Of a stretch of DNA of 16,565 bases, positions 1 to 16,195 are shown piece after piece (position 1 is the first letter of the stretch; every line of letters begins with the position of its first letter). The DNA is from a virus. Lineage: Duplodnaviria > Heunggongvirae > Uroviricota > Caudoviricetes. The notes under the pieces are model-generated. The model was given only the letters and a program-made list of their open reading frames with translations. It was not told where the DNA came from and did no database searches. The position numbers were made by a program, and so were the translations under genes. The DNA lies in IMG/VR virus record IMGVR_UViG_2667527959_000010, positions 1 to 16,565 of that record. One strand, 5' to 3'.

Positions 1-46
1 AGCTCCATCAGCAAAAGGGGATGATAAGTTTATCACCACCGACTAT

Positions 47-709
47 TTGCAACAGTGCCTCGACGGGACCAAATACAGGAATGTCTGGGTTGTTGGTGAT
101 CTGCATGGTTGCTACACCAGACTGATGTCCGAACTCCATCGTGTGGATTTTGACCCGGCGCAGGATTTACTGATATCGGTCGGCGACCTTATCGATCGCG
201 GCACCGAAAATGTTAAATGCCTGGAGCTATTGCAGATGCCATGGTTCAGAGCGGTTATGGGCAACCATGAGCGGCTGATGATTGATGCGTTAAGTCCTGA
301 TGGCAACGTGAATAACTGGCTAATGAATGGCGGTCAATGGTTCTTCATGCTGGACGCTGATCAGGAAATATTAGCCAGGGCGCTGGTGGAGTTGGTAAGA
401 CGACTGCCCTATATCATTGAGTTGAACACCGGGCAAGAAACTATCGTTATAGCTCATGCCGACTATCCGGATAATGAATATCAATTCGGTAAGGAGGTGC
501 CGCTTTTCAATGTTGTCTGGGCGCGCGAGCGTATCAGTGATTCGATGGATGATATTGGTGGCGAAATTTCGGGCGCAGATCGTTTTATCTTTGGTCACAC
601 TCCGGTGAAAAGCCCGAAGACATTCTGGAATCAGCATTATATCGACACTGGTGCCGTATTTTGCGGAAACCTGACATTGATGAAAGTGAAAGGTGATGGT
701 GCAGCATGA
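47..709 (+). CDS. Serine/threonine protein phosphatase, PPP family (lambda phosphatase-like)
   Basis: 220 aa with PPP metallophosphatase motifs GDLHGC, GDLIDRG, GNHE and HADYP, and an N-terminus that aligns with lambda phosphatase as recalled. Only in-frame start after the upstream stop at 26-28 is TTG at 47, with no clear SD, so the start is uncertain. May correspond to a P1 phosphatase gene by position (from memory, unverified). Confidence 0.85.
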
Positions 710-1407
710 AGATTGCTTTAGTTCTTCGCTCTGGTGGTGACTATAACGCTTCCGATGTGCAGTGGCTGGTTAATCAACTGCCAAAAGGCTATGAAATTAT
801 TTGCCTGACAGACCTGAAGCGTTTACATGTGCCAGGCGTTAAGGTTGTCCCATTAATCAACCAGTGGCAAAAGTGCCGTGGCTGGTGGGCGAAAATCGAG
901 TTGTTCCGACCTGATATAACCGATGATCTGTTCTATCTGGATTTGGACACGGTTATTGCCGGTGATATACGCCCAATTCTTGAGAATCCACCAACCAACT
1001 TCACCATGCTTAGGGATTTTTACCATCCACAATATCGTGGCAGCGGTGCTCTGTGGATACCAAATAGTGTAAAAGCGCATATCTGGAGTGCATTCTGGCA
1101 AGATCCGGAAGGTTGGATTGCTCGTTGTGTTACAACTGAGTGCTGGGGGGATCAGGGGTTCTTGCGGAAGGTTATGGGCGATGACACACCAGCATTTCAG
1201 GATCTGTATCCAGGATGGTTTGTAAGTTACAAGGCCGATGTTGTGGAACCTGGTTCAAAATATGCGAGCGCGCGTTACTCCAGGGGGAATGGGACATTAC
1301 CAAAGGACTGCCGAATAATCTTTTTCCACGGCAAACCGCGGCCTCGCGAAGTGTCAGAGGATTGGCTTCCCCTCATTAGCTCGTTTTTTGAGCGAGAATT
1401 AGAATAA
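706..1407 (+). CDS. Hypothetical protein, 233 aa, with DxD-like motif (YLDLDTV)
   Basis: Long ORF whose ATG overlaps the phosphatase stop (ATGA), suggesting translational coupling. N-terminus [11 protein letters not shown] and LDLDT resemble a nucleotide-sugar transferase fold, but this is only a weak motif impression. Confidence 0.6.
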
Positions 1408-1408
1408 T

Positions 1409-1425
1409 ATTGCTCTAATAATTCA
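1409..1425 (+). promoter_or_regulatory. C1 repressor operator-like site (ATTGCTCTAATAATTCA)
   Basis: 14/17 match to the P1 C1 operator consensus ATTGCTCTAATAAATTT, with the first 13 positions identical. Overlaps the stop codon of the upstream ORF. Confidence 0.6.
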
Positions 1426-1436
1426 ATATTTTTAAT

Positions 1437-1464
1437 ACGTGATGTACACTCATCACGTTTTTTA
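1437..1464 (+). terminator. Rho-independent terminator-like hairpin
   Basis: Perfect 8-bp stem ACGTGATG/CATCACGT with 6-nt loop, followed by TTTTT(A)TT. Sits immediately after the phosphatase/233-aa operon. Confidence 0.55.
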
Positions 1465-1474
1465 TTAGAGCAAT
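1458..1474 (-). promoter_or_regulatory. C1 repressor operator-like site, inverted orientation
   Basis: Reverse complement reads ATTGCTCTAATAAAAAA, 14/17 to consensus. Forms an inverted pair with the 1409-1425 site and overlaps the terminator T-tract. Confidence 0.55.
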
Positions 1475-1488
1475 CCATAAGGTGCACT

Positions 1489-1707
1489 ATGTGGCCATTC
1501 CGACGGAAATATCACTACTGGCTGATCGCCTTTGTTACACCGTCCGGCGATATCAGGCATGTCATCACCCGGTATCGCAACAAGAGACTCACCTTAGCCA
1601 GAATTTTACAGGCTGCCATTGGTGAGGGACTGGATACAAATTGCGTAGTCCTTCCACCTTCATACTTAGGAAAAATGACCGAAGCACAAGCTAATACGGA
1701 ACTTTGA
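1489..1707 (+). CDS. Hypothetical protein, 72 aa
   Basis: ATG at 1489 preceded by SD AAGGTG (1479-1484) at 4-nt spacing. Stop TGA at 1705-1707 lies one base before the ATG of the next ORF, suggesting coupling. No recognisable motifs. Confidence 0.55.
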   Translation: MWPFRRKYHYWLIAFVTPSGDIRHVITRYRNKRLTLARILQAAIGEGLDTNCVVLPPSYLGKMTEAQANTEL

Positions 1708-1708
1708 A

Positions 1709-2971
1709 ATGAGCACTTCAGCACAAAACCAATCAATCGAAAATGTATCTATCCCTGACGTCCTGAATGCCGGTATCCCGGCCATTATTCAGAACATCCG
1801 AGCCGCGCAACGCCGCGTTAGTTGTGATGACCTCACAGCACGTTTTTTTGATAATGCGGTTCAGTCAGCTGAGATGCTTCACGCACAGCTTATTGATGTT
1901 TATAACGCAGAAGCTGATAGCCATAACGACCTGGTAGATGCAGCTGAAAATATGCAGTTGGATCTCGGTCTGAAGGGTAAAGAAATTGAAGATCTTCAGC
2001 TGCAAATTGAGCATTTGAAACGCCAGCAACAGGATGCCATCGACGATGCGACGCATGACGCCAACCAGCGTGCTGATAATGCCGAACGTATAAGCATTGA
2101 GTTGGAAACAAAACTCAATGAAATGACCGCTATGGTTGAGCTGCGGAATTCACAGATTTCAACACTAAAATCTCAATATAAAGAGATCATGAAACTTGAT
2201 CCTTTTAACCTTGAGAAACGTTATAACAAAGCCAAAAGCGAGCGCCAGGAACTGCGTAAGCAGGTCGCCGACCTTAACCAACAGCTCAAAAAGGCTATTA
2301 AAGATGCAAGCGAGGCGCGCGTGGCATTTGCTAATAAAAAAGCAGAGGTTACCGAGCTGGTTAATGAAAATGCTAAATTTGCGATGCTCAAGAAGGAAAT
2401 GTATGGCATTACTGAGCGCCGTTTTCCTGCAAGCAAACTCCATCCGACGTTAGGGCAAATCTCATTCTTCCCGCGCCTCCTGGCTTATGGAATCTCATCG
2501 CCTAAAGAGTTCAATAACGAGCGTCCTTATATCGTTTCTAAGCTGGACTTTGCTTATCAGTTCTGCTGTGACATGGGCTATGCCATTGATATCCGTATCA
2601 ACGAATGGTTGATGCCAAACTTCCAGCCGTTGGCCATTTTCCGCGAGTTCCAGCCGGAAGGTTGGGTAGAGTTCTTCCATGAAATGATCTGTAAAGAGAT
2701 GGAAAGCCGCCGCCCGGAACTGGTCCGCCGTGTCGAGTGGGCGCAAGAGGTTATGTTGGCAGATGCAGAGCTACCGTTCGAACCGGAATTCATTGATGAA
2801 CTGGCCAATAAAGGGCTGCATAGCCTATTTGATGTAGTTACCCGCCGTCATGAGCAGTTGGTTGTTGAATTGGGTTTAGAAGAAACTGCGGCAAGAAGAC
2901 TTCTCGATGTTTGCTATGCACGTAGCGATGCATGGGAAAAAGAGAACGGCGGTACTATTTACGTTCGCTGA
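1709..2971 (+). CDS. Hypothetical protein, 420 aa, N-terminal coiled-coil-like region and C-terminal globular domain
   Basis: Long uninterrupted ORF followed by a strong terminator. The N-terminal ~230 aa are rich in E/K/Q/L heptad-like sequence (e.g. LQLQIEHLKRQQQ, ELRKQVADLNQQLKK); the C-terminal ~190 aa are Cys/aromatic-containing with no motif I can assign. Confidence 0.8.
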   Translation: MSTSAQNQSIENVSIPDVLNAGIPAIIQNIRAAQRRVSCDDLTARFFDNAVQSAEMLHAQLIDVYNAEADSHNDLVDAAENMQLDLGLKGKEIEDLQLQIEHLKRQQQDAIDDATHDANQRADNAERISIELETKLNEMTAMVELRNSQISTLKSQYKEIMKLDPFNLEKRYNKAKSERQELRKQVADLNQQLKKAIKDASEARVAFANKKAEVTELVNENAKFAMLKKEMYGITERRFPASKLHPTLGQISFFPRLLAYGISSPKEFNNERPYIVSKLDFAYQFCCDMGYAIDIRINEWLMPNFQPLAIFREFQPEGWVEFFHEMICKEMESRRPELVRRVEWAQEVMLADAELPFEPEFIDELANKGLHSLFDVVTRRHEQLVVELGLEETAARRLLDVCYARSDAWEKENGGTIYVR

Positions 2972-2990
2972 TAGTTACAGTGTCACTTTT

Positions 2991-3025
2991 AATGCTGGTG
3001 GAGTGCGTCCCACCAGCATTTTTTT
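2991..3025 (+). terminator. Rho-independent terminator
   Basis: 11-bp perfect stem AATGCTGGTGG/CCACCAGCATT with 8-nt loop, followed by a T-run at 3021-3025. Lies 20 nt after the stop of the 420-aa ORF. Confidence 0.7.
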
Positions 3026-3044
3026 CGTCCAATGAGGAGGGCAT

Positions 3045-3551
3045 TTGAGTATTTTCAACCAACACGCACACCATGAACGTCCGTATATCGTCATAGTTGA
3101 TATTGATGGAACAATATCAGAGGCAACTGAAGACAGACTGCATTTGCTTCCGCCACCAGGTAAAGGTGCATTAACAAAGGACTGGAACGAGTTTAATCTC
3201 GCCTGTGACACTGATACTCCCATAACTCCAGTTATTGATATTGTGCGCCAGTTATATAACGTTTACACGGTCTGGTTTGTAACCGGGCGCTGTGAGATCG
3301 CAAGGGATAAAACATGAGCCTGGCTGCGAAAGTACGTAACAAACGGGGATGAGCCTTTGCTATCTATGCGTCCTGCCACCGATGACAGAAATGACGGTCC
3401 AGCAAAGATTGATCTCCTTAAGAAAATTGGTCTAAGCAAAATTGCGTTCGCGCTGGAAGATAAGATTGAAGTGGCGCGTGTTTTCAGGCGTCACGGCGTG
3501 CTTACGTTAATGGTCAGGGAGTATGAAAACGCGCTTCTTCATCAGCAATAA
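3045..3551 (+). pseudogene. HAD-superfamily phosphatase (polynucleotide 3'-phosphatase/Pnkp-like domain) interrupted by a single in-frame TGA at 3315-3317
   Basis: ORFs 3045-3317 and 3357-3551 are in the same frame, separated only by one TGA and 13 sense codons. The joined product has HAD motif I IVIVDIDGT, motif II-like WFVTGR, and a C-terminal K/DD region resembling the T4 Pnkp phosphatase domain as recalled. TTG start with strong SD GAGGAGG (3034-3040). Confidence 0.6.
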
Positions 3552-3567
3552 TTGCTCTAATAAATCT
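3551..3567 (+). promoter_or_regulatory. C1 repressor operator (ATTGCTCTAATAAATCT)
   Basis: 16/17 match to the C1 operator consensus. Overlaps the TAA stop of the phosphatase ORF and a TTGATA -35-like hexamer (3567-3572); a GAAAAT -10-like hexamer follows at 3590-3595. Confidence 0.7.
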
Positions 3568-3589
3568 TGATATTTAAAGCAGAGAAGGT

Positions 3590-3623
3590 GAAAATAAAAA
3601 CATGCCGCAAGGGGCGCGGCATG
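3590..3623 (-). terminator. Hairpin with T-tract on the minus strand (possible terminator for leftward transcripts)
   Basis: Perfect 8-bp stem CATGCCGC/GCGGCATG (3601-3623) with 7-nt loop. On the minus strand it is followed by TTTTTATTTT; on the plus strand it is not followed by a U-tract. Confidence 0.45.
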
Positions 3624-3651
3624 TATCAAATCAATCACAGGAGCTGAAGAT

Positions 3652-3738
3652 ATGAACACGGCATTCAAAATCATTATGGCCGCGATCTATTTCTGGCTGT
3701 TCTCTATCACTTTTGGCAGCATTGTCGCGCATGGGTAA
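3652..3738 (+). CDS. Candidate small hydrophobic peptide, 28 aa (MNTAFKIIMAAIYFWLFSITFGSIVAHG)
   Basis: ATG at 3652 with SD AGGAG (3639-3643) at 8-nt spacing. Product is predicted to be a single hydrophobic helix. Too short for the supplied ORF track; sits downstream of a C1-operator-overlapped promoter-like sequence. Confidence 0.35.
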   Translation: MNTAFKIIMAAIYFWLFSITFGSIVAHG

Positions 3739-3772
3739 GGGGAGTATATTAGCCATTTGGAACCCCACGGTC

Positions 3773-3802
3773 TCTTGCGGGTTTAATTAAGAACCCGCAA
3801 GA
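3773..3802. other. Stem-loop at the hsdR 3' end (11-bp stem TCTTGCGGGTT/AACCCGCAAGA, 8-nt loop)
   Basis: Perfect inverted repeat 15 bp from the hsdR stop codon. The A-run lies 3' on the plus strand and the T-run 5' on the minus strand, so it is not a canonical intrinsic terminator in either direction. Confidence 0.4.
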
Positions 3803-3817
3803 AAAATACGAATTGGG

Positions 3818-6800
3818 CTATATTTTTCCGCCTACGCCTTTAAACTTCTCAATAAACGAGACGATTTTCTGGAAAACTGCCTGTTTTTTCGTTTTATATT
3901 GCGGATTCAACGGACTAAGTTTTGGTAATGTTTCGTTTAATTCTGTGCCATTTTCGGTGGCGTATTCGCGTTTTAAAGACGTGCGAATATAGCGTTTTGC
4001 TGCATCTTCATTAAGATTTTCTTCTTTTATCAATGCTTCTGCTTCACGTTGCTGTTCGCGTTGAGCAAACGTAAAGAATGCGTCAATGATGCTGGCTTTG
4101 TCCGGTAAATCATCCAGGTTCGTTTGCTGAATAAAATCGACCACCAGGCCCTCTTTAGCACGGTTCCCTAGGCTTGAACGAATTAAGCGTTTGACCTCTT
4201 CGATCATTTCGCCCTTGCCTTTATTTTGTCTGTTGTGTTCGAAAATCAGTCCAAGGATATAATCCAGGTTTATTTCCTGAGACTTCAGCAAATCGACCTC
4301 AAAAACTACGTCATCCCAGTCAGTGGTTGATTTCTCTTTTTTCTCAGCTTCTTTCTCACGGCGCTGCCAGTCGCGAATATCGTTATAGGCAGAACGATAA
4401 TCCTGAATCTTGCGATCAGCAGGGAGACGAATTGTTTGCAATTCAGCGAGCTTTTCATCATCCACATAATGTTCTGCTTTGAATTTTTCTACTGCAACAG
4501 GATCGCTAAGATCGATTTGTTGCAGGGCTTTCAGCGTGGCAAATTCATCATAGTTTTGCAGGATGTTCTCGGTACGCAGGTATTCACCAAACAGTTTAAC
4601 GAAGTCTTTCTTCTCTTTTTCACTTTCAATACTGGTAGGGTCAGGGAACCGTTGTTCCAGTTCTGAAACTACTGTCATGAAGCCGCGTTTAGCTTCACCA
4701 GTGGCAGCATCAGTAAAGCCTTCCATATACTCTGCATAACTCTTTTCTAAAACCACATTTTTGGTATTTTTGTCACCAAACAGCGTTATGGCATCAATAG
4801 TTGAGCGTTCCAGATCCCGGAAAGTGACGATATTACCGAAGGTTTTAGTTGCATCATAAATACGGTTGGTGCGGGAAAATGCCTGCATCAAGCCGTGAAA
4901 ACGCAGGTTTTTATCGACGAATAGCGTGTTCAATATTGGAGCATCGAAGCCAGTTAAAAACATCCCCACGACAATTAACAGATCGATATCCTGATTTTTA
5001 ACCCGCTGGGCTAAATCACGATAGTAGTTCTGAAAACCGTTACTGTCGGTGCTGAAGTTAGTTTTAAAATAGCTGTTATACTCACGAATTGCAGCATCAA
5101 GAAACTCTTTAGCACTGCTGTCCATTGCGCTGGTATCAAAAGTTTCATCGGAAATTTCACCAATGGCATTTTGTTCTTCATTGGCAGCAAAGGAGAAGAT
5201 TGTCGCAATATGCAGCGGTTTATAGGTGGCCGATTTATTAGCTGCTTCCTCTTGTAACCGTTTAAACGTCGCGTAATAGGCTTTTGCAGCATCCACGCTG
5301 CTCACTGCCAACATAGCATTAAAACCTTTTGAGCCAGGGAAGGTACGGTGGGTTTTCTGGCGGAAATTATTCAGAATATATTGCGTGATTTCCTGAATAC
5401 GCATGGGATGAAGAAACGCCTGCTGATTTTCAGCCGCACTCAGTTTTTTCTCGTCAGTTTCTGTCTCTAAAGACTTAAACTGTGGCCGCACATCGTTGTA
5501 GTCCACCTTGAATTTGAGCACTTTTTCGTCACGAATCGCATCGGTAATTACATACGAATGCAATTCACGACCAAATACGCTGGCGGTTGTTTCTGAGCCT
5601 AAGGCGTTTTCCGGGAAAATAGGGGTGCCGGTAAAACCAAACTGATAATAGCGTTTGAATTTCTTCTTCAGGTTTTTCTGCGCTTCTCCAAACTGGCTGC
5701 GGTGGCATTCATCAAATATAAACACCACTTGCTGATTATATACAGGCAGGTCGCTTTCTGCTTTCATCAGGTTATTGAGTTTCTGAATAGTAGTGACGAT
5801 AATTTTGTTATCGTCCTTATCCAGATTTCGTTTAAGGCCTGCGGTATTTTCCGAGCCGTTGACGCTGTCTGGCGAAAAACGCTGATATTCCTTCATGGTC
5901 TGGTAATCGAGGTCTTTCCTGTCGACCACGAAGAAGACTTTATCAATAAAGTCCAGCTCTGTTGCCAGACGCGCGGCTTTAAAGCTGGTGAGGGTTTTAC
6001 CAGAACCGGTAGTGTGCCAGATATACCCACCGCTTTCCGGTTTTGACCAGTTCTTCGCTGTAAAGGAGCTCTTAATTTTCCACAGAATGCGCTCGGTGGC
6101 AGCAATCTGGTACGGTCGCATCACCAGTAGCGTCTGACTGCTGTCAAAAACGCTGTAGTTCACCAGAACATTAAGCAGAGTATGTTTCTGGAAAAAGGTA
6201 GCGGTAAAATCTTTGAGGTCTTTAATCAGCGTGTTGTCTGATTTCGCCCAGTTCATGGTGAAGTCAAAACTGTTTTTATCGCGCTTTGTTGTGTTGGCAA
6301 AATAACGGGTATCGGTGCCGTTAGAAATGACAAACAGTTGCAGATACTTAAACAGGGAATTTTCGCTGTTAAAACTCTCTTTACTGTAACGATGTATCTG
6401 GTTGAAAGCCTCACGAATCGCCACGCCGCGCTTTTTCAGTTCGATTTGTACCAGTGGTAAGCCATTAACCAGGATCGTGACGTCATAACGGTTAGCATGA
6501 GAACCCGTCTGTTCAAACTGCTGGATAATCTGCACCTTATTGCGCATGAGATTCTTTTTATCTATCAAATAGATGTTCTCAAGTCGCTCGTCATCAAAAA
6601 TAAAGTCGCAAATATAGTCGATATGGATTTTACGGGTCTTATCCAGAATGCCATCGCTCGGGTTGTCCAGATACTGCTCCGTGAAACGCCGCCACTCGCT
6701 GTCATTAAACACCACACCATTGAGGCTCTGAAGCTGTTCCCGAACATTGGACAGCATAGCCGACTGAGATTTTACGGATATAAATTCATAGCCCTGATTC

Positions 6801-6934
6801 CGCAGGTCCTGAATCAGTTCACGTTCCAGGTCCGATTCGCTCTGGTAGCTGTCGCCTGTTTGCTCAGCTTTGATGTACTTATCAAGGACGATAAAGTTAT
6901 TGGATTCAGCAATGGTGTGTGTTTGATGAGTCAT
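3818..6934 (-). CDS. hsdR: Type I restriction enzyme R subunit (HsdR), type IC-like
   Basis: 1038 aa. Walker A TGSGKT, DEAH-box FDECHR, and an N-terminal PD-(D/E)xK-like nuclease motif (D...IELKK). Length matches EcoR124I HsdR as recalled. SD AAGGA upstream of the ATG at 6934. Confidence 0.95.
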
Positions 6935-7055
6935 AGCGCATCCTTTGTGCCGCCTGGCAAGGGCCGGAAGGGCGTTAAGAGTGACTTCCGGCGCGTAAAA
7001 AATAGTCTATATACAGACCGGGTGTTAAGGTGGCCCGGTCGGTAGCAATGGTCAA

Positions 7056-8312
7056 TTAATTACTGACAGTTTCAGGTGTTGGGAAACTGAACAGTAAATC
7101 ACGATAGTACTCGTATTGTTTCTGGCGCAACTCGATTTCACGCGGAAGACCTTCGGTGATGGAGTTGGTCAGGGTGTCGAATTTATCGAGCAGAGCAGAT
7201 ATTCGCTCTTGTTTCTGTTTATCAGGCAATGGCACTGGTAATGTTTTTATAATATCTGCATTCAAGTTACTGACCGACCCGCTATTGATTTTACTTTCCC
7301 AATAATTTTTCACCTTTTTTGATGAAAGATAGTGATACAGATAATCAGCATTTAATTTTTCACCAAAATTGCTGATTGATGCCCATCCATCATGGATAGC
7401 TCCGGTTATCCTTAAAATATATGGTCTGCCAAAGCTCATAGAGTTAGAAATGACGAAATCACCGGGGTTCAAGATTCGCGATTTTTGGGCACCCTCTGCA
7501 GTTATTTTTTGTAAGGTTTTGTCAATGTATTTAGAGCCGGGTATAGTATCTCCGATTTTAATCCATGGGATACCATTTCCTTGTTCAGTAAGATAATTAA
7601 CAATTGGTCTGGGGGATGCCCCTCGTTGTATTTTGGCTACTTCTCCCAATGCCTTCCACTCAACCTCACCCTCATCAAAACTCAGCAATTGGTCGCGATA
7701 GTAGTTGTACTGTTTTTTACGCATGTTAAGCTCAGCGGTAAGCTCAGCGGTAAGTGCAGTAAATTTATCCAGAATCCGAACGATTTCAGACTGGATGGCA
7801 AGGGATTTTTCCGGATTATCCGGGCAAGGGATTGGGATGAGTAGTTTTGACATCAATGCATTTGAGCTTAGGTTCGGTTGTGCTCCGCCCCCGGCGAGGA
7901 TATAAATAGTCTCTGTATTTAACAATAAAAAATGGTATAAATAATTATTGTTTAGAATATTTTCTTTGGGTATGAATTTCCCAACCCGTTGGTTAAGATA
8001 ACATTTTGTTCCTTTTTTATAAATTCCTACCTTTCCTGTAGTGGCACCTGACATTGCAATCAATATATTTCCCATAGATACCTCAAAGGAGGATAAATCT
8101 TCCTTGTAATCATTTAGTGAAAAGTATTTCACCTCATCTAAGTCAACATTAAATCCATCTATATTTGTGATTCTGACTATCGGTAACCCAGTTTCTTTAA
8201 ATAAGCTGCTTTTAAATGCAAATCCATTTTTAAAATCACAAACATCCTTCAAGGGTTTCCACTCAACCTCAACCCCATCCAGCAATTTTTCCAGATAACT
8301 TAACTCGCTCAT
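7056..8312 (-). CDS. hsdS: Type I restriction-modification specificity subunit (HsdS), type IC-like
   Basis: 418 aa with two variable target-recognition regions separated by the conserved central region ...[33 protein letters not shown], and a C-terminal conserved repeat ...[36 protein letters not shown], as in the EcoR124I/EcoDXXI family. Confidence 0.95.
7730..7753 (-). repeat. Tandem 12-bp repeat (2 copies) encoding TAEL-TAEL in the HsdS central conserved region
   Basis: GCTCAGCGGTAA x2 on the plus strand, which is ACCGCTGAGCTT x2 in the coding sense. A degenerate partial third unit follows. Confidence 0.8.
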
Positions 8313-9871
8313 TTTTGCACCTCGCAGCCTTCAATTTCAGCCACAATTGCATCAATATCTTTACGCAACTGGTCGATTTTGCTGACCGTGGTTTTCAGCT
8401 CAGCATTCAGCTCACCGATATCGATAATTTCGCGGTTATCTTTCGCTTCCACATAGCTGCTCACCGACAGGTTATAGTCATTCGCGACAACGGCTTCAAA
8501 CGCGACAGATTTTGCCAGATGAGCAACATCTTCCTTGCTGGCAAATACCTGCATAATTTTTTCTATATGGGCATCGGTCAGAATGTTGTTGTTAGTCTCT
8601 TTTTTGAACAGTTCGCTGGCATCAATAAACTGAACTTTGGTATCCGTTTTATGTTTAGACAGCACCAGAATATTTACGGCAATGGTGGTGCCAAAGAACA
8701 GGTTCGGTGCGAGTGAAATCACGGTTTCGACATAGTTATTGTCGACCAGATACTGACGGATTTTCTGCTCCGCGCCGCCACGGTAAAAAATACCCGGGAA
8801 GCAGACAATCGCGGCGCGACCTTTGGCCGAAAGATAGTTCAGCGCATGTAGTACAAACGCAAAGTCAGCTTTGGATTTGGGGGCCAGAACGCCAGCCGGG
8901 GCAAAACGTTCATCGTTAATCAGCGTCGGGTCATCGCTGCCAATCCATTTCACCGAATACGGTGGGTTAGATACGATGGCGTCAAACGGTTTTTCATCTC
9001 TGAAGTGCGGCTCAGTCAGCGTATTGCCCAGCTTGATATCAAACTTGTCGTAGTTGATATTGTGCAAAAACATGTTCATACGCGCCAGGTTATAGGTCGT
9101 ATGGTTGATTTCCTGACCGAAAAAGCCTTCTTCGATGATATGGTTATCAAACTGTTTTTTCGCCTGCAACAACAGTGAGCCGGAACCCGCTGCCGGGTCG
9201 TAGATTTTGTTAACGCTGGTCTGCCCGTGCATAGCCAGTTGTGCAATCAGCTTGGAGACGTGCTGCGGTGTAAAGAACTCACCGCCTGACTTACCGGCAT
9301 TTGCCGCATAGTTAGAAATCAGGAACTCATAGGCATCACCGAACAGGTCAATCTGATGTTCGTTGAAGTCACCAAGTTTTAACCCTTCAACCCCTTTCAG
9401 AACCGCAGCCAGGCGGGCATTTTTATCTTTAACGGTGTTACCCAGGCGGTTACTGGTGGTATCGAAATCAGCAAACAAACCTTTGATGTCAGCTTCTGAA
9501 GGATAACCGTAAGCAGAACTTTCGATAGCAACGAAGATGCTGTTTAAATCTGCATTCAGTCTGTCATTAGTATTTGCTTTCGCAGCTACGTTGCAGAAAA
9601 GCTGACTGGGGTAGATGAAGTAGCCTTTAGTTTTGATGGCATCGTCTTTAATGTCATCAGTAATTACGCTGTCATCCAGTTTCGCATAACAGATACTGTC
9701 ATCACCGGCTTCAATATAGCTGGAAAAATTTTCGCTGATAAAACGGTAGAAAAGTGCGCCCAGAACGTATTGCTTAAAATCCCATCCATCGACCGAACCC
9801 CTGACATCGTTAGCAATTTGCCAGATTTGACGATGAAGCTCTGCACGTTGTTGAATACTTGTCATTTTCAT
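8309..9871 (-). CDS. hsdM: Type I restriction-modification N6-adenine DNA methyltransferase subunit (HsdM)
   Basis: 520 aa. AdoMet-binding motif [10 protein letters not shown] and catalytic motif NPPY ([10 protein letters not shown]). Its stop overlaps the hsdS start by 4 bp. N-terminus [13 protein letters not shown] matches my recollection of EcoR124I HsdM. Confidence 0.95.
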
Positions 9872-11905: not shown

Positions 11906-11922
11906 ATTGCTCTAATGTATTG
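11906..11922 (+). promoter_or_regulatory. C1 operator-like site upstream of lpa (ATTGCTCTAATGTATTG)
   Basis: 13/17 match to the C1 operator consensus, first 11 positions identical. Overlaps a TTGCTA -35-like hexamer (11920-11925) spaced 16 bp from a TATTAT -10-like hexamer (11942-11947). Confidence 0.6.
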
Positions 11923-13724: not shown

Positions 13725-15208
13725 TGGCCAGAAGTTGCGTAACGGACCCACGTTGGCGCGAGCTGGTGGCGCTATATCGTTATGACTGGATTGCGGCCGC
13801 TGATGTGTTGTTTGGGAAGACACCAACCTGGCAGCAGGATGAGATCATTGAGTCCACGCAGCAGGACGGCAGTTGGACAAGTGTGACCTCCGGCCATGGT
13901 ACTGGTAAATCGGATATGACGAGTATCATTGCAATACTCTTCATCATGTTTTTCCCCGGCGCTCGCGTCATTCTGGTCGCTAACAAAAGACAGCAAGTCC
14001 TTGATGGTATTTTCAAATACATAAAGAGCAATTGGGCTACTGCTGTTAGCAGATTCCCGTGGTTGTCGAAGTATTTCATTCTTACAGAAACGTCTTTTTT
14101 TGAGGTGACTGGCAAGGGTGTTTGGACAATATTGATAAAGTCCTGTCGCCCCGGAAATGAGGAGGCGTTGGCTGGTGAACACGCCGATCATCTCTTGTAT
14201 ATCATCGACGAAGCGTCGGGTGTGAGTGATAAAGCATTCAGTGTGATAACAGGTGCGCTGACCGGTAAGGATAACCGTATTCTGCTTCTTTCCCAGCCTA
14301 CGCGACCTTCAGGCTATTTCTACGATTCACACCACAGACTAGCTATTCGCCCGGGAAATCCTGATGGATTGTTTACTGCGATAATACTGAATAGTGAAGA
14401 ATCTCCGCTTGTAGATGCAAAATTTATACGAGCAAAACTTGCGGAGTATGGCGGTCGTGATAACCCCATGTACATGATCAAAGTACGTGGTGAATTTCCC
14501 AAATCTCAAGATGGCTTTCTTCTTGGTCGTGATGAGGTTGAGCGGGCGACGCGGCGAAAGGTCAAGATTGCCAAAGGATGGGGCTGGGTTGCATGTGTTG
14601 ACGTTGCTGGTGGCACAGGACGAGATAAGTCCGTTATTAATATCATGATGGTGTCCGGCCAGCGAAATAAACGCCGTGTAATCAACTATCGTATGCTGGA
14701 ATACACAGACGTTACAGAAACGCAGTTAGCCGCCAAGATTTTCGCAGAATGTAACCCAGAACGGTTCCCGAACATAACCATAGCTATTGATGGCGATGGC
14801 TTGGGGAAATCGACGGCTGATCTAATGTACGAACGCTATGGCATTACCGTCCAGCGTATCCGCTGGGGTAAAAAGATGCACAGCCGTGAAGATAAAAGCC
14901 TTTATTTCGATATGCGCGCTTTCGCGAATATTCAGGCGGCAGAAGCTGTAAAATCAGGGCGTATGAGGCTTGATAAGGGGGCTGCGACTATAGAGGAAGC
15001 ATCAAAGATACCGGTAGGGATAAATTCCGCAGGTCAATGGAAGGTGATGTCAAAGGAAGATATGAAGAAAAAACTCAACCTGCACTCACCGGACCATTGG
15101 GATACATATTGTTTCGCTATGTTGGCGAACTATGTTCCCCAAGATGAAGTGCTTAGCGTCGAAGACGAAGCGCAGGTTGATGAAGCTCTGGCATGGCTTA
15201 ATGAATAA
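13724..15208 (+). CDS. pacB: Terminase large subunit PacB
   Basis: 494 aa. Start overlaps the pacA stop (TAATG). Walker A-like GHGTGKS and Walker B-like [10 protein letters not shown]. Confidence 0.9.
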
Positions 15209-16178: not shown

Positions 16179-16195
16179 AGATTTATTAGTGCATT
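16179..16195 (-). promoter_or_regulatory. C1 operator-like site between coi and c1 (Op99-like)
   Basis: Plus strand AGATTTATTAGTGCATT is 14/17 to the reverse-complement consensus AAATTTATTAGAGCAAT. Position corresponds to the autoregulatory operators upstream of c1 in P1. Confidence 0.45.

Follow-up and report, generated by a model that had tools for sequence, protein, structure and literature searches.

The window analysed here comprises 16,565 nucleotides of a Caudoviricetes record (IMG/VR IMGVR_UViG_2667527959_000010). It contains two co-oriented open reading frames, pmgR and pmgS, together with the operators, promoter and hairpins that surround them (Table 1). The frames encode products of 72 and 420 amino acids, as in the P1 operon, and are separated by a single base. 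This arrangement was described in the original prediction, and the TGA-A-ATG junction between stop and start suggests translational coupling of the two genes.

Table 1. Features of the pmgR–pmgS segment, in window coordinates.
Feature	Position	Strand	Description
C1 operator OpmgRa of P1 (former Op86a)	1409–1425	+	Consensus match; position as annotated in P1 and P7
PpmgR −10 hexamer TAATAC	1433–1438	+	Mapped by alignment from the AF234172 annotation; weak consensus match
Hairpin	1437–1464	+	8-bp stem, 6-nt loop, then T6; ΔG −11.4 kcal/mol, z = −4.4; invariant in P1 and P7
C1 operator OpmgRb of P1 (former Op86b)	1458–1474	−	Inverted; downstream of the predicted start
Shine-Dalgarno AAGGTG of pmgR	1479–1484	+	Read from sequence; 4 nt before ATG
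pmgR (P7 shtA)	1489–1707	+	ATG; 72 aa, 8.4 kDa, pI 9.9; phrog_3177, E 6e-46
pmgS (P7 shtB)	1709–2971	+	ATG; 420 aa, 48 kDa, pI 5.1; phrog_1660, E 6e-193
PmgS coiled coil (residues 42–232)	1832–2404	+	AF2; helices 42–157 and 167–232; invariant columns
PmgS α/β middle domain (residues 236–350)	2414–2758	+	Family-specific; motifs RPxYI..LDF, NEWxxP, HPxLxxRxxWA
PmgS C-terminal (HhH)2 (residues 352–412)	2762–2944	+	Like RAD51 N-terminal domain, RpoA αCTD and NusA acidic repeat
Intrinsic terminator	2991–3027	+	11-bp stem (6 GC pairs), T7; stem-loop 2991–3020; ΔG −18.6 kcal/mol, z = −5.3; conserved in P1

The segment from 1409 to 3027 is identified as the pmgR–pmgS operon of a P1-type (IncY) phage-plasmid, a predicted transcription unit of the backbone. 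It shows 95.6–96.7% nucleotide identity to P1, P7, RCS47, SJ46 and others over 100% of 1.8 kb (19 records). The order ppp, pmgQ, operators, pmgR, pmgS, pap and the positions of the operators match the annotations of P1 (AF234172) and P7 (AF503408), so that both nucleotide identity and synteny assign the segment to the P1 (Punavirus) backbone operon. The genes on either side, the sites of the operators, the hairpin between them and the terminator after pmgS are all the same in P1. Compared with the orthologous genes of P1 (95.8% nucleotide and about 97% amino acid identity, equal lengths of both products), only point differences were found, including a −10 hexamer that reads TAATAC here and TAAAAC in P1. 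PmgR carries two amino acid changes beside four synonymous codon differences, and PmgS ten beside 43 synonymous ones, a pattern of purifying selection. A segment of at least 95% identity is present in 683 plasmid records of PLSDB, and both genes are among the 21 extremely conserved genes in a survey of 77 P1-like phage-plasmids (PMC9603915). Presence across P1-like phage-plasmids, which had been put forward as a check, therefore bears out the proposal that the pair belongs to the conserved pmg backbone and is not cargo. The pair, named shtA and shtB in P7, is already catalogued, and as the rediscovery of an annotated P1 backbone operon the identification adds little by itself. What is new here are the neighbourhoods of PmgS relatives, the -AA tails in the family and the limitation of the pairing with pmgR to P1-type elements.

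The C1 consensus ATTGCTCTAATAAATTT is matched in 14 of its 17 bases both at 1409–1425 on the plus strand and at 1458–1474 on the minus strand. The first 13 operator bases, ATTGCTCTAATAA, are identical at the two sites, which constitute a perfect 13-nt inverted repeat. When up to three mismatches are allowed, the consensus is found six times in the whole window against 0.12 expected matches, and none of 200 shuffled sequences reaches six. The two are putative C1 operators, asymmetric 17-bp sites at annotated operator positions, and the inverted pair noticed upstream of the genes in the original prediction thus corresponds to OpmgRa and OpmgRb. The first overlaps the −35 hexamer TTGCTC (1410–1415) that the P1 record assigns to PpmgR. 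This promoter is a prediction only, with three of the six sigma-70 consensus bases in each hexamer, and was not flagged by a generic sigma-70 scan. A search of the literature under the operator name "Op86" returned nothing relevant. With respect to late transcription, the −22 box of the P1 late promoter LPhot has no match with up to one mismatch within positions 1–5000; the search gave chance-level matches only, none of them near pmgR–pmgS, and in the annotation of P1 the stretch from Oppp to pmgT is free of late promoters.

Stem-loops that are followed by a T run and are stabler than shuffled sequences, as expected for predicted intrinsic terminators, occur at 1437–1458 and at 2991–3020. The latter is the strong downstream terminator that had been recognised earlier; the former resembles an intrinsic terminator that would act on transcription arriving from ppp–pmgQ. 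Terminators and operators had been thought to bracket the unit. All of these elements are present, but the upstream hairpin sits between the operators rather than outside them, and the region 1409–1474 as a whole represents a nested palindrome (ΔG −24, z = −8.5). This anatomy supports the view of a discrete, C1-repressed unit of two genes. The operators flank the predicted promoter, one on the −35 hexamer and the other just past the start, and repression from these positions would presumably keep the operon silent in the lysogen and allow it to be switched on early in lytic growth. The hairpin nested between the operators should halt transcripts reading through from the upstream ppp–pmgQ genes. 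Because transcripts from PpmgR would begin inside this hairpin, they are anticipated to escape that terminator, and the strong terminator 3′ of pmgS would close the unit.

According to published genetics, P1 needs PmgR for infectious virions. The pmgR deletion mutant yields fewer than 10^2 PFU per mL, is complemented in trans 180-fold and displays tails plus incomplete heads in transmission electron micrographs (PMC9024508). The tails in these lysates are complete, and the picture is the same as that obtained upon knockout of pacA (terminase) or pmgC (adaptor). A CRISPRi screen disagrees with the deletion in rating pmgR non-essential, a result that its authors regard as a miss. PmgR was not detected by LC-MS/MS of P1 (PMC9024508). 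[quoted passage not shown] PmgR does not qualify as a head-completion or connector protein of the virion; we infer instead that it acts as a cofactor when the head is filled or the connector assembled, without becoming a structural part.

The predicted structure of PmgR is a small, basic α/β fold of β-β-α-β-α topology (pLDDT 83). Searches of Pfam, NCBIfam and PADLOC gave no match, and a BFVD search linked the protein only to uncharacterised proteins of N4-like Pseudomonas phages. On account of its topology a GIY-YIG nuclease was considered, a class defined by GIY and YIG motifs 10–11 residues apart, conserved Arg, Glu and Asn residues and a domain of about 90–100 amino acids; motif spacing and protein size ruled this assignment out. 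Non-structural cofactors of head completion or packaging are exemplified by gpFI of phage λ. PmgR is likewise small, is not reported in the virion and is apparently required between the prohead and the filled, tail-competent head. No sequence or fold similarity to gpFI-type cofactors was found, and PmgR differs from them in that it is encoded behind a predicted, repressor-controlled early promoter and not in a late operon. An essential protein of 72 residues that is unreported in the virion, PmgR belongs to the small number of gaps left in the account of how P1 heads mature. P1 serves as the standard phage for transduction, and phage-plasmids of its type disseminate resistance genes, which gives knowledge of the control of head filling a practical value.

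PmgS is composed of four parts: an N-terminal motif, a coiled coil, a private middle domain and a C-terminal (HhH)2 domain. The N-terminus carries a conserved (K/R)R(V/I)xxDDL motif. The coiled coil of about 190 residues, noted originally as a long coiled-coil-like region, is modelled by AF2 as two long helices separated by an L-D-P break at residues 163–165 that is conserved in the family. A profile restricted to the middle domain matched nothing among PDB sequences or in Pfam, and the domain has no recognisable relatives outside the family. The AF2 model is of moderate quality (pLDDT 73.6, pTM 0.41). Library matches of the coiled coil to TPR, YscO, SMC, Rad50, myosin, LmuB and JetC are compositional and were rejected as evidence of family. 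An assignment of PmgS to the SMC/Rad50/MukB-type ATPases was likewise dismissed: the coiled-coil segment aligns alone, at 18–26 bits against cut-offs of 567–847, and no ATPase domain was detected with Pfam, NCBIfam or PADLOC.

The C-terminal domain, for which no motif could be assigned in the original prediction, adopts the five-helix (HhH)2 fold with two helix-hairpin-helix motifs. Its best matches in both sequence and fold are N-terminal domains of the RAD51 type, which bind DNA, and the Pfam family RNA_pol_A_CTD is matched by 14 of 69 PmgS relatives. In contrast to RAD51/RadA, RpoA and NusA, the domain in PmgS is not joined to a recombinase, RNA polymerase or NusA core, but is preceded by the coiled coil and the private middle domain. 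The (HhH)2 of the P1 clade is acidic (pI 4.6) and its second hairpin is degenerate, with loss of the second G-h-G. Distant relatives retain KG[IM]GxK at the hairpin glycines. The present PmgS reads KGL in its first hairpin and ELGLEE in its second; other members of the P1 clade lack the glycine. On sequence grounds, such an acidic and degenerate domain would fit protein binding at least as well as DNA binding, in the manner of the NusA acidic repeats. PmgS can now be approached as an (HhH)2 protein with DNA or another protein as its candidate ligand. The original remark that function is not evident from sequence holds. Clear homology to characterised P1 morphogenetic proteins had been named as grounds for giving up the view of a pair without evident function; such homology exists in the names PmgR and PmgS but not in a known biochemical function.

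The PmgS family has at least 118 representatives (clusters at 50% identity). Its distant members, which share 15–25% identity with PmgS, lie beside exo/RecT, orphan DNA methyltransferases and integrase, and not in head clusters. Such early-left, recombination and methyltransferase neighbourhoods were found in Aeromonas prophages and another proteobacterial prophage, and also in a Vibrio phage, a metagenomic prophage and an 86-kb IMG/VR phage. In these settings, which correspond to lambdoid early-left (pL-type) genes, the homologues are co-oriented with exo/RecT, Dam-type methyltransferases and RdgC, and share the orientation of int except in the Vibrio phage. By contrast, pmgS of P1-type elements shares with pmgR alone a separate unit under C1 control, which has a phosphatase/glycosyltransferase-like pair on one side and pap on the other, and only in these elements is a pmgR-like frame found directly upstream. 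The P1-type protein could have taken on another function, to which its constant association with pmgR might point. A C-terminal -AA is present in 27 of 68 family representatives (about 40%); an ending of this kind may target a protein to ClpXP, whose proteolysis is common among regulators.

Phages deleted for pmgS form infectious virions with normal plaquing and a normal restriction phenotype, with EcoA, EcoB and EcoK hosts plated normally. The gene was also non-essential in the CRISPRi knockdown, and PmgS has not been reported in the virion by mass spectrometry. As the relatives of PmgS occur in early-left operons with recombination, orphan methyltransferase and integrase genes, PmgS would be an early accessory protein, whose coiled coil may act in early DNA transactions as the tether of an (HhH)2 module that binds DNA or protein. 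We regard the complete account, which joins the identity and control of the operon to PmgR as a head cofactor and PmgS as an early accessory protein, as reasonably probable. A farther-reaching version, to which we give a little less than even weight, holds that PmgS has been mislabelled as morphogenetic and represents an unrecognised, widespread family of early operons, an unstable early factor acting on phage DNA or host transcription, with PmgR as a separate head-filling cofactor of the P1 lineage that merely shares its transcript. If so, temperate phages would possess a family that combines a coiled coil with a hinge, an α/β domain of its own and an (HhH)2 module at the C-terminus, which is habitually encoded beside orphan DNA methyltransferases and exo/RecT, and of which some 40% end in a ClpXP-signal-like -AA.

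The database labels of PmgS, "head morphogenesis", "prohead scaffolding protein" and "sheath contraction", are doubtful, being supported neither by domain content and promoter type nor by the knockout phenotype and the neighbourhoods of relatives. One rival reading takes PmgS for the missing prohead scaffold of P1, which would fill the prohead with PmgR as its helper and exit before packaging. The homologue in the GenBank record of phage D6 is labelled a putative prohead scaffolding protein, the PHROGs label of the family is "head morphogenesis", and P1 has yielded no distinct scaffolding protein (PMC9024508). PmgS is also helical in the AF2 model, acidic and outside the reported virion proteins, as a scaffold should be, and the co-transcribed pmgR has a head defect. 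However, a sole scaffold would be essential, and P1 plaques normally upon deletion or knockdown of pmgS. The gene lies far from prt, pro and gene 23, between ppp/pmgQ and pap, and follows a predicted early promoter under C1 control; a late promoter is neither annotated nor found. Its homologues are located in recombination, methyltransferase and integrase operons instead of head clusters. An (HhH)2 is not a feature of scaffolds, the match of PmgS to Pfam Phage_scaffold is noise (E 0.71), and those who determined the P1 proteome prefer to seek the scaffold in an N-terminal domain of the capsid precursor (PMC9024508). Taken together, these observations leave the scaffold very improbable. Tail-sheath functions, as the AF503408 annotation has it for P7 (ShtA, "sheath structure or assembly"; ShtB, "sheath contraction"), are hardly credible: the published deletion phenotypes contradict them, with complete tails in pmgR-deleted lysates and a viable pmgS deletion, neither protein appears in the cryo-EM text cited above (PMC12810830), and neither bears any likeness to tail proteins. 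PmgS is unlikely to serve as a scaffold of the capsid or as a component of the head or sheath.

Among the readings that keep PmgS early, its (HhH)2 might be a module for protein contacts that mimics the RpoA αCTD or a NusA acidic repeat, in which case PmgS would be an early regulator or host-takeover factor that acts on the transcription machinery and not on DNA. The acidic P1-clade domain with its lost G-h-G hairpin, the RNA_pol_A_CTD matches and -AA tails among relatives, and a gene that is dispensable and, by annotation, early-expressed are all consistent with this. We nevertheless consider it unlikely, given that the best (HhH)2 matches are to the DNA-binding RAD51-type domain, that the neighbours of the relatives are recombination and methylation genes and not transcription factors, and that PmgS has no known partner. 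A role as an anti-defence or defence accessory, such as an SMC-type decoy or a methyltransferase partner in restriction evasion, would explain why orphan DNA methyltransferases recur beside PmgS relatives in at least five lineages and why the protein is dispensable in laboratory hosts, and weak coiled-coil matches to the LmuB and JetC models point in the same direction. These PADLOC matches reflect composition, do not extend beyond the coiled coil and fall far short of family level, and plating of the deletion mutant on the three restricting hosts was normal, so that such a role appears improbable; in P1-type elements, moreover, pmgS adjoins no methyltransferase.

The two-gene segment is almost certainly the known P1 backbone operon pmgR-pmgS. 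A megablast search with positions 1300-3100 matched 20 phage records, 19 of them over the full length at 95.6-96.7% identity, including P1, P7, RCS47, SJ46, JL22 and phi456. The order in the P1 record is pmgQ, OpmgRa (formerly Op86a; labelled 'controls expression of pmgR and pmgS'), the predicted promoter PpmgR with its -35 hexamer inside OpmgRa, OpmgRb (formerly Op86b) on the opposite strand, pmgR (72 aa), pmgS (420 aa, 'coiled-coil domain') and pap; the P7 names for the pair are shtA and shtB. E. coli IncY P1-type plasmids such as pAW1.7_1 match the window at 100% identity over its entire length. In PLSDB, 683 plasmids carry the operon segment at an identity of at least 95%, and both genes are among the 21 extremely conserved genes in a survey of 77 P1-like phage-plasmids (PMC9603915). 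The suggestion in the original prediction that the pair belongs to the conserved pmg backbone, and is not cargo, is thus borne out. The segment is an ordinary object, a conserved and annotated backbone operon, and the initial view that its function is not evident from sequence is upheld.

The pmgR gene is left unannotated in several P1-type records (SJ46, JL22, MH445380/1) and is labelled 'RNA-directed RNA polymerase L' in that of phage Ro157c2YLVW. A PmgS sequence is named 'DNA cytosine methyltransferase' in P0002, a 480-aa E. coli entry, the PmgS homologue in the phage D6 record is called 'prohead scaffolding protein', and the P7 record describes the pair as sheath proteins.

Two tightly coupled ORFs, an inverted pair of C1 operators 5' of pmgR and a strong intrinsic terminator after pmgS had been predicted, and all were recovered from the ORF list and the sequence. 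The junction reads ...CTT TGA A ATG AGC..., which leaves one base between the pmgR stop and the pmgS start. Relative to P1, pmgS carries 43 synonymous and 10 non-synonymous codon differences and pmgR 4 and 2, respectively; on sequence evidence, both are genuine genes, and purifying selection acts on them. The first 13 bases of the two operators are identical and form a perfect 13-nt inverted repeat. Six matches to the operator consensus at up to 3 mismatches occur in the window versus 0.12 expected, a number reached in 0 of 200 shuffles. The operators are identical with those annotated in P1, and the control region is nearly base-for-base the same in the window, P1 and P7. The predicted bracketing of the pair by terminators and operators holds for the elements but not for their arrangement, as the upstream hairpin is nested between the operators, not outside them, and the region is therefore one composite palindrome.

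With C1 on both inverted operators, the -35 hexamer would be covered and the region just 3' of the start blocked, and the nested hairpin with its T run would terminate read-through coming from ppp-pmgQ. The PpmgR transcript is expected to start about 7 nt past the predicted -10 hexamer, near 1445, and, beginning within the hairpin loop, would be unable to form the hairpin. PpmgR, itself a prediction, matches the consensus weakly (3/6 in each hexamer) and was not called by a generic promoter scan, and a motif search revealed no late-promoter -22 box near the operon. Taken together, these features give the unit the look of an early, repressor-controlled operon. The P1 genes ref, dmt and ban belong to this class, and most of these three serve DNA metabolism.

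Features of the window (nucleotides), of the PmgS AF2 model (residues) and of loci examined elsewhere (L handles, own coordinates)
Feature	Position	Strand	Details
C1 operator	1409-1425	+	consensus ATTGCTCTAATAAATTT, 14/17 bases
Composite palindrome	1409-1474		ΔG -24, z = -8.5
Upstream hairpin	1437-1458		then six T; ΔG -11.4, z = -4.4
C1 operator	1458-1474	-	consensus ATTGCTCTAATAAATTT, 14/17 bases
Shine-Dalgarno AAGGTG	4 bases 5' of pmgR ATG	+	read from sequence
pmgR	1489-1707	+	ATG start, 72 aa
pmgS	1709-2971	+	ATG start, 420 aa
Terminator 3' of pmgS	2991-3020		11-bp stem, then seven T; ΔG -18.6 kcal/mol, z = -5.3
pap	3045-3551		HAD-type polynucleotide kinase/phosphatase-like; 168 aa in P1
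pap codon 91	3315-3317		in-frame CGA-to-TGA
C1 operator 3' of pap	3551-3567		1 mismatch
Type I restriction-modification locus	hsdR 3818-6934; hsdS 7056-8312; hsdM 8309-9871	-	after operator 3551-3567; span 3551-9871
C1-operator-like sites	11906-11922; 14420-14436; 16179-16195		3 mismatches each; pdcB/lpa, pacB and c1-upstream parts
PmgS helix	residues 15-36		
PmgS helices	residues 42-157, 167-232		break at family-invariant L163-D-P165
PmgS α/β middle domain	residues ~240-350		
PmgS helical C-terminal domain	residues 352-412		
DEV gp67	L014 4986-5390		134 aa; N-terminal part shares PmgR fold, ~32% identity, BFVD query TM-score up to 0.85
PmgS-like/methyltransferase loci	L004 4674-7380; L005 10001-11960; L008 2451-4249; L011 9001-10999; L016 4881-6660; L017 5233-7476; L021 41-1902		

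Apart from coiled-coil noise, single-sequence family scans with PmgS returned only the PHROG 'PmgS-like head morphogenesis', and a word-indexed search gave 29 clusters, nearly all from P1-sized contigs. An HMM search run in full over 1.84 billion representatives revealed 118 relatives at E ≤1e-3 (80 at E ≤1e-10), most of 360-470 aa. The AF2 model (pLDDT 73.6), alongside whose features RAD51D and the HhH part of AF1548 are listed, contains a middle domain with no relatives in Pfam or PDB sequences. A profile of 69 relatives matched the N-terminal domain of human RAD51 (E 6e-8), the RpoA αCTD (~6e-6) and also NusA; individually, 19 of the 69 matched Pfam HHH_5 and 14 RNA_pol_A_CTD. The canonical KG[IM]GxK hairpin is present in distant relatives and is replaced by ELGLEE or NYDMTPE in the P1 clade, where the domain is acidic (pI 4.6). 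Such an (HhH)2 module, with two helix-hairpin-helix motifs, might bind DNA, as a RAD51-like domain, or protein, like the acidic repeats of NusA; the acidic, degenerate form in the P1 clade leans towards protein binding.

Among the 68 cluster representatives in family alignment A4 (e.g. P0060, P0072, P0075 and P0106), 27 end in -AA (0.8% expected from composition) and three more in -VA; the P1 clade is without the -AA tail, P1-type PmgS ending in IYVR. The tail, which we take to resemble the ssrA-type tail recognized by ClpXP, may be a degradation signal.

In the P1-type elements, phage D6 and two metagenomic contigs that carry DarB-like and pap-like genes, a pmgR-like ORF lies directly upstream of the PmgS homologue, and none was found beside PmgS homologues outside such elements in the neighbourhoods examined. 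In Aeromonas prophages and phage phiARM81mr the order is repressor/cro ... DUF3799 exonuclease, RecT, a 362-aa ORF, PmgS-like, a small ORF, Dam, RdgC ... int. Another proteobacterial prophage has a YqaJ exonuclease upstream and Dam two genes downstream, followed by int; a Vibrio phage has YfdP/YfdQ, PmgS-like, methyltransferase, ... int, and a metagenomic prophage Dam, PmgS-like, ... int. An 86-kb IMG/VR phage carries a C5-methyltransferase just upstream, separated by one short ORF. In at least five separate lineages the PmgS-like gene has an orphan methyltransferase gene (Dam, MT-A70, type II or C5) within one or two genes of it, and none of the homologues described here lies in a head-gene cluster.

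PmgR is basic (pI 9.9), and its word-indexed homologues come from P1-type elements only. The confident model (pLDDT 83) displays a β-β-α-β-α fold, whose best BFVD matches (query TM-score 0.71-0.85) are uncharacterised proteins of 130-176 aa from N4-like Pseudomonas phages. By tblastn the domain was found in 66 Pseudomonas phage records at ~32% identity and marginal E values near 8e-3; among the matches listed, the genomes are of the ~72-kb Litunavirus type. Since DEV gp67, which has only unannotated neighbours, and 65 other records match, the domain is not confined to P1-type phages; the predicted fold recurs in phages with no functional label attached.

Gonzales et al. 2022 (PMC9024508) made in-frame deletions of both genes. 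The pmgR deletion yielded <10^2 PFU per mL, and complementation in trans restored plaques and raised lysogen-forming particles 180-fold; PmgR had no HHpred match and went undetected in the virion proteome. With pmgS deleted, the virions were still infectious and their restriction phenotype was normal (PMC9024508). In a genome-wide CRISPRi screen pmgS came out as non-essential, and so did pmgR, a result that the authors of the screen counted as a miss. [quoted passage not shown]

The phenotype and the absence from reported virion proteins argue that PmgR is a cofactor, itself non-structural, that acts in head filling or in connector assembly. For PmgS, a role in the head, as scaffold or in the sheath, the kind of function its PHROG label and some records name, is argued against by its dispensability, early promoter type, (HhH)2 module and relatives' neighbourhoods, so that PmgS probably has no morphogenetic role. 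P1 is not known to have a scaffolding protein of its own, and the proteome authors prefer an N-terminal scaffold domain within the capsid precursor (PMC9024508). Together with the recombination, methylation and integration neighbours, the same features favour PmgS as an early accessory protein, in which the long coiled coil would tether a DNA-binding or protein-binding module. The specific roles proposed for the two proteins are tentative. The sources consulted do not mention an (HhH)2 domain in PmgS, how broad the family is, the early-left positions of its genes next to methyltransferases, the -AA tails, or that pmgR and pmgS are paired in P1-type elements only; these additions are modest re-annotation results and define no new kind of system.

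Elsewhere in the window, the nonsense change leaves pap as two ORFs of 90 and 64 aa, which makes the gene a probable pseudogene in the lineage of this plasmid. The operator 3' of pap is the equivalent of P1 OpmgT/Op88. The hsd locus occupies the place of the P1 pmgT...humD region, with phd-doc after it; the P1 record remarks on homology here to the flanks of the EcoDXXI and R124 hsd loci, and the site has the look of a point at which insertion or exchange recurs. For most related plasmids the alignment begins only at base 60, and in the two 100%-identical plasmids the match falls into two pieces, the plasmid having ~1.45 kb of extra DNA; the left window end (positions 1-59) therefore lies at a variable junction upstream of ppp.
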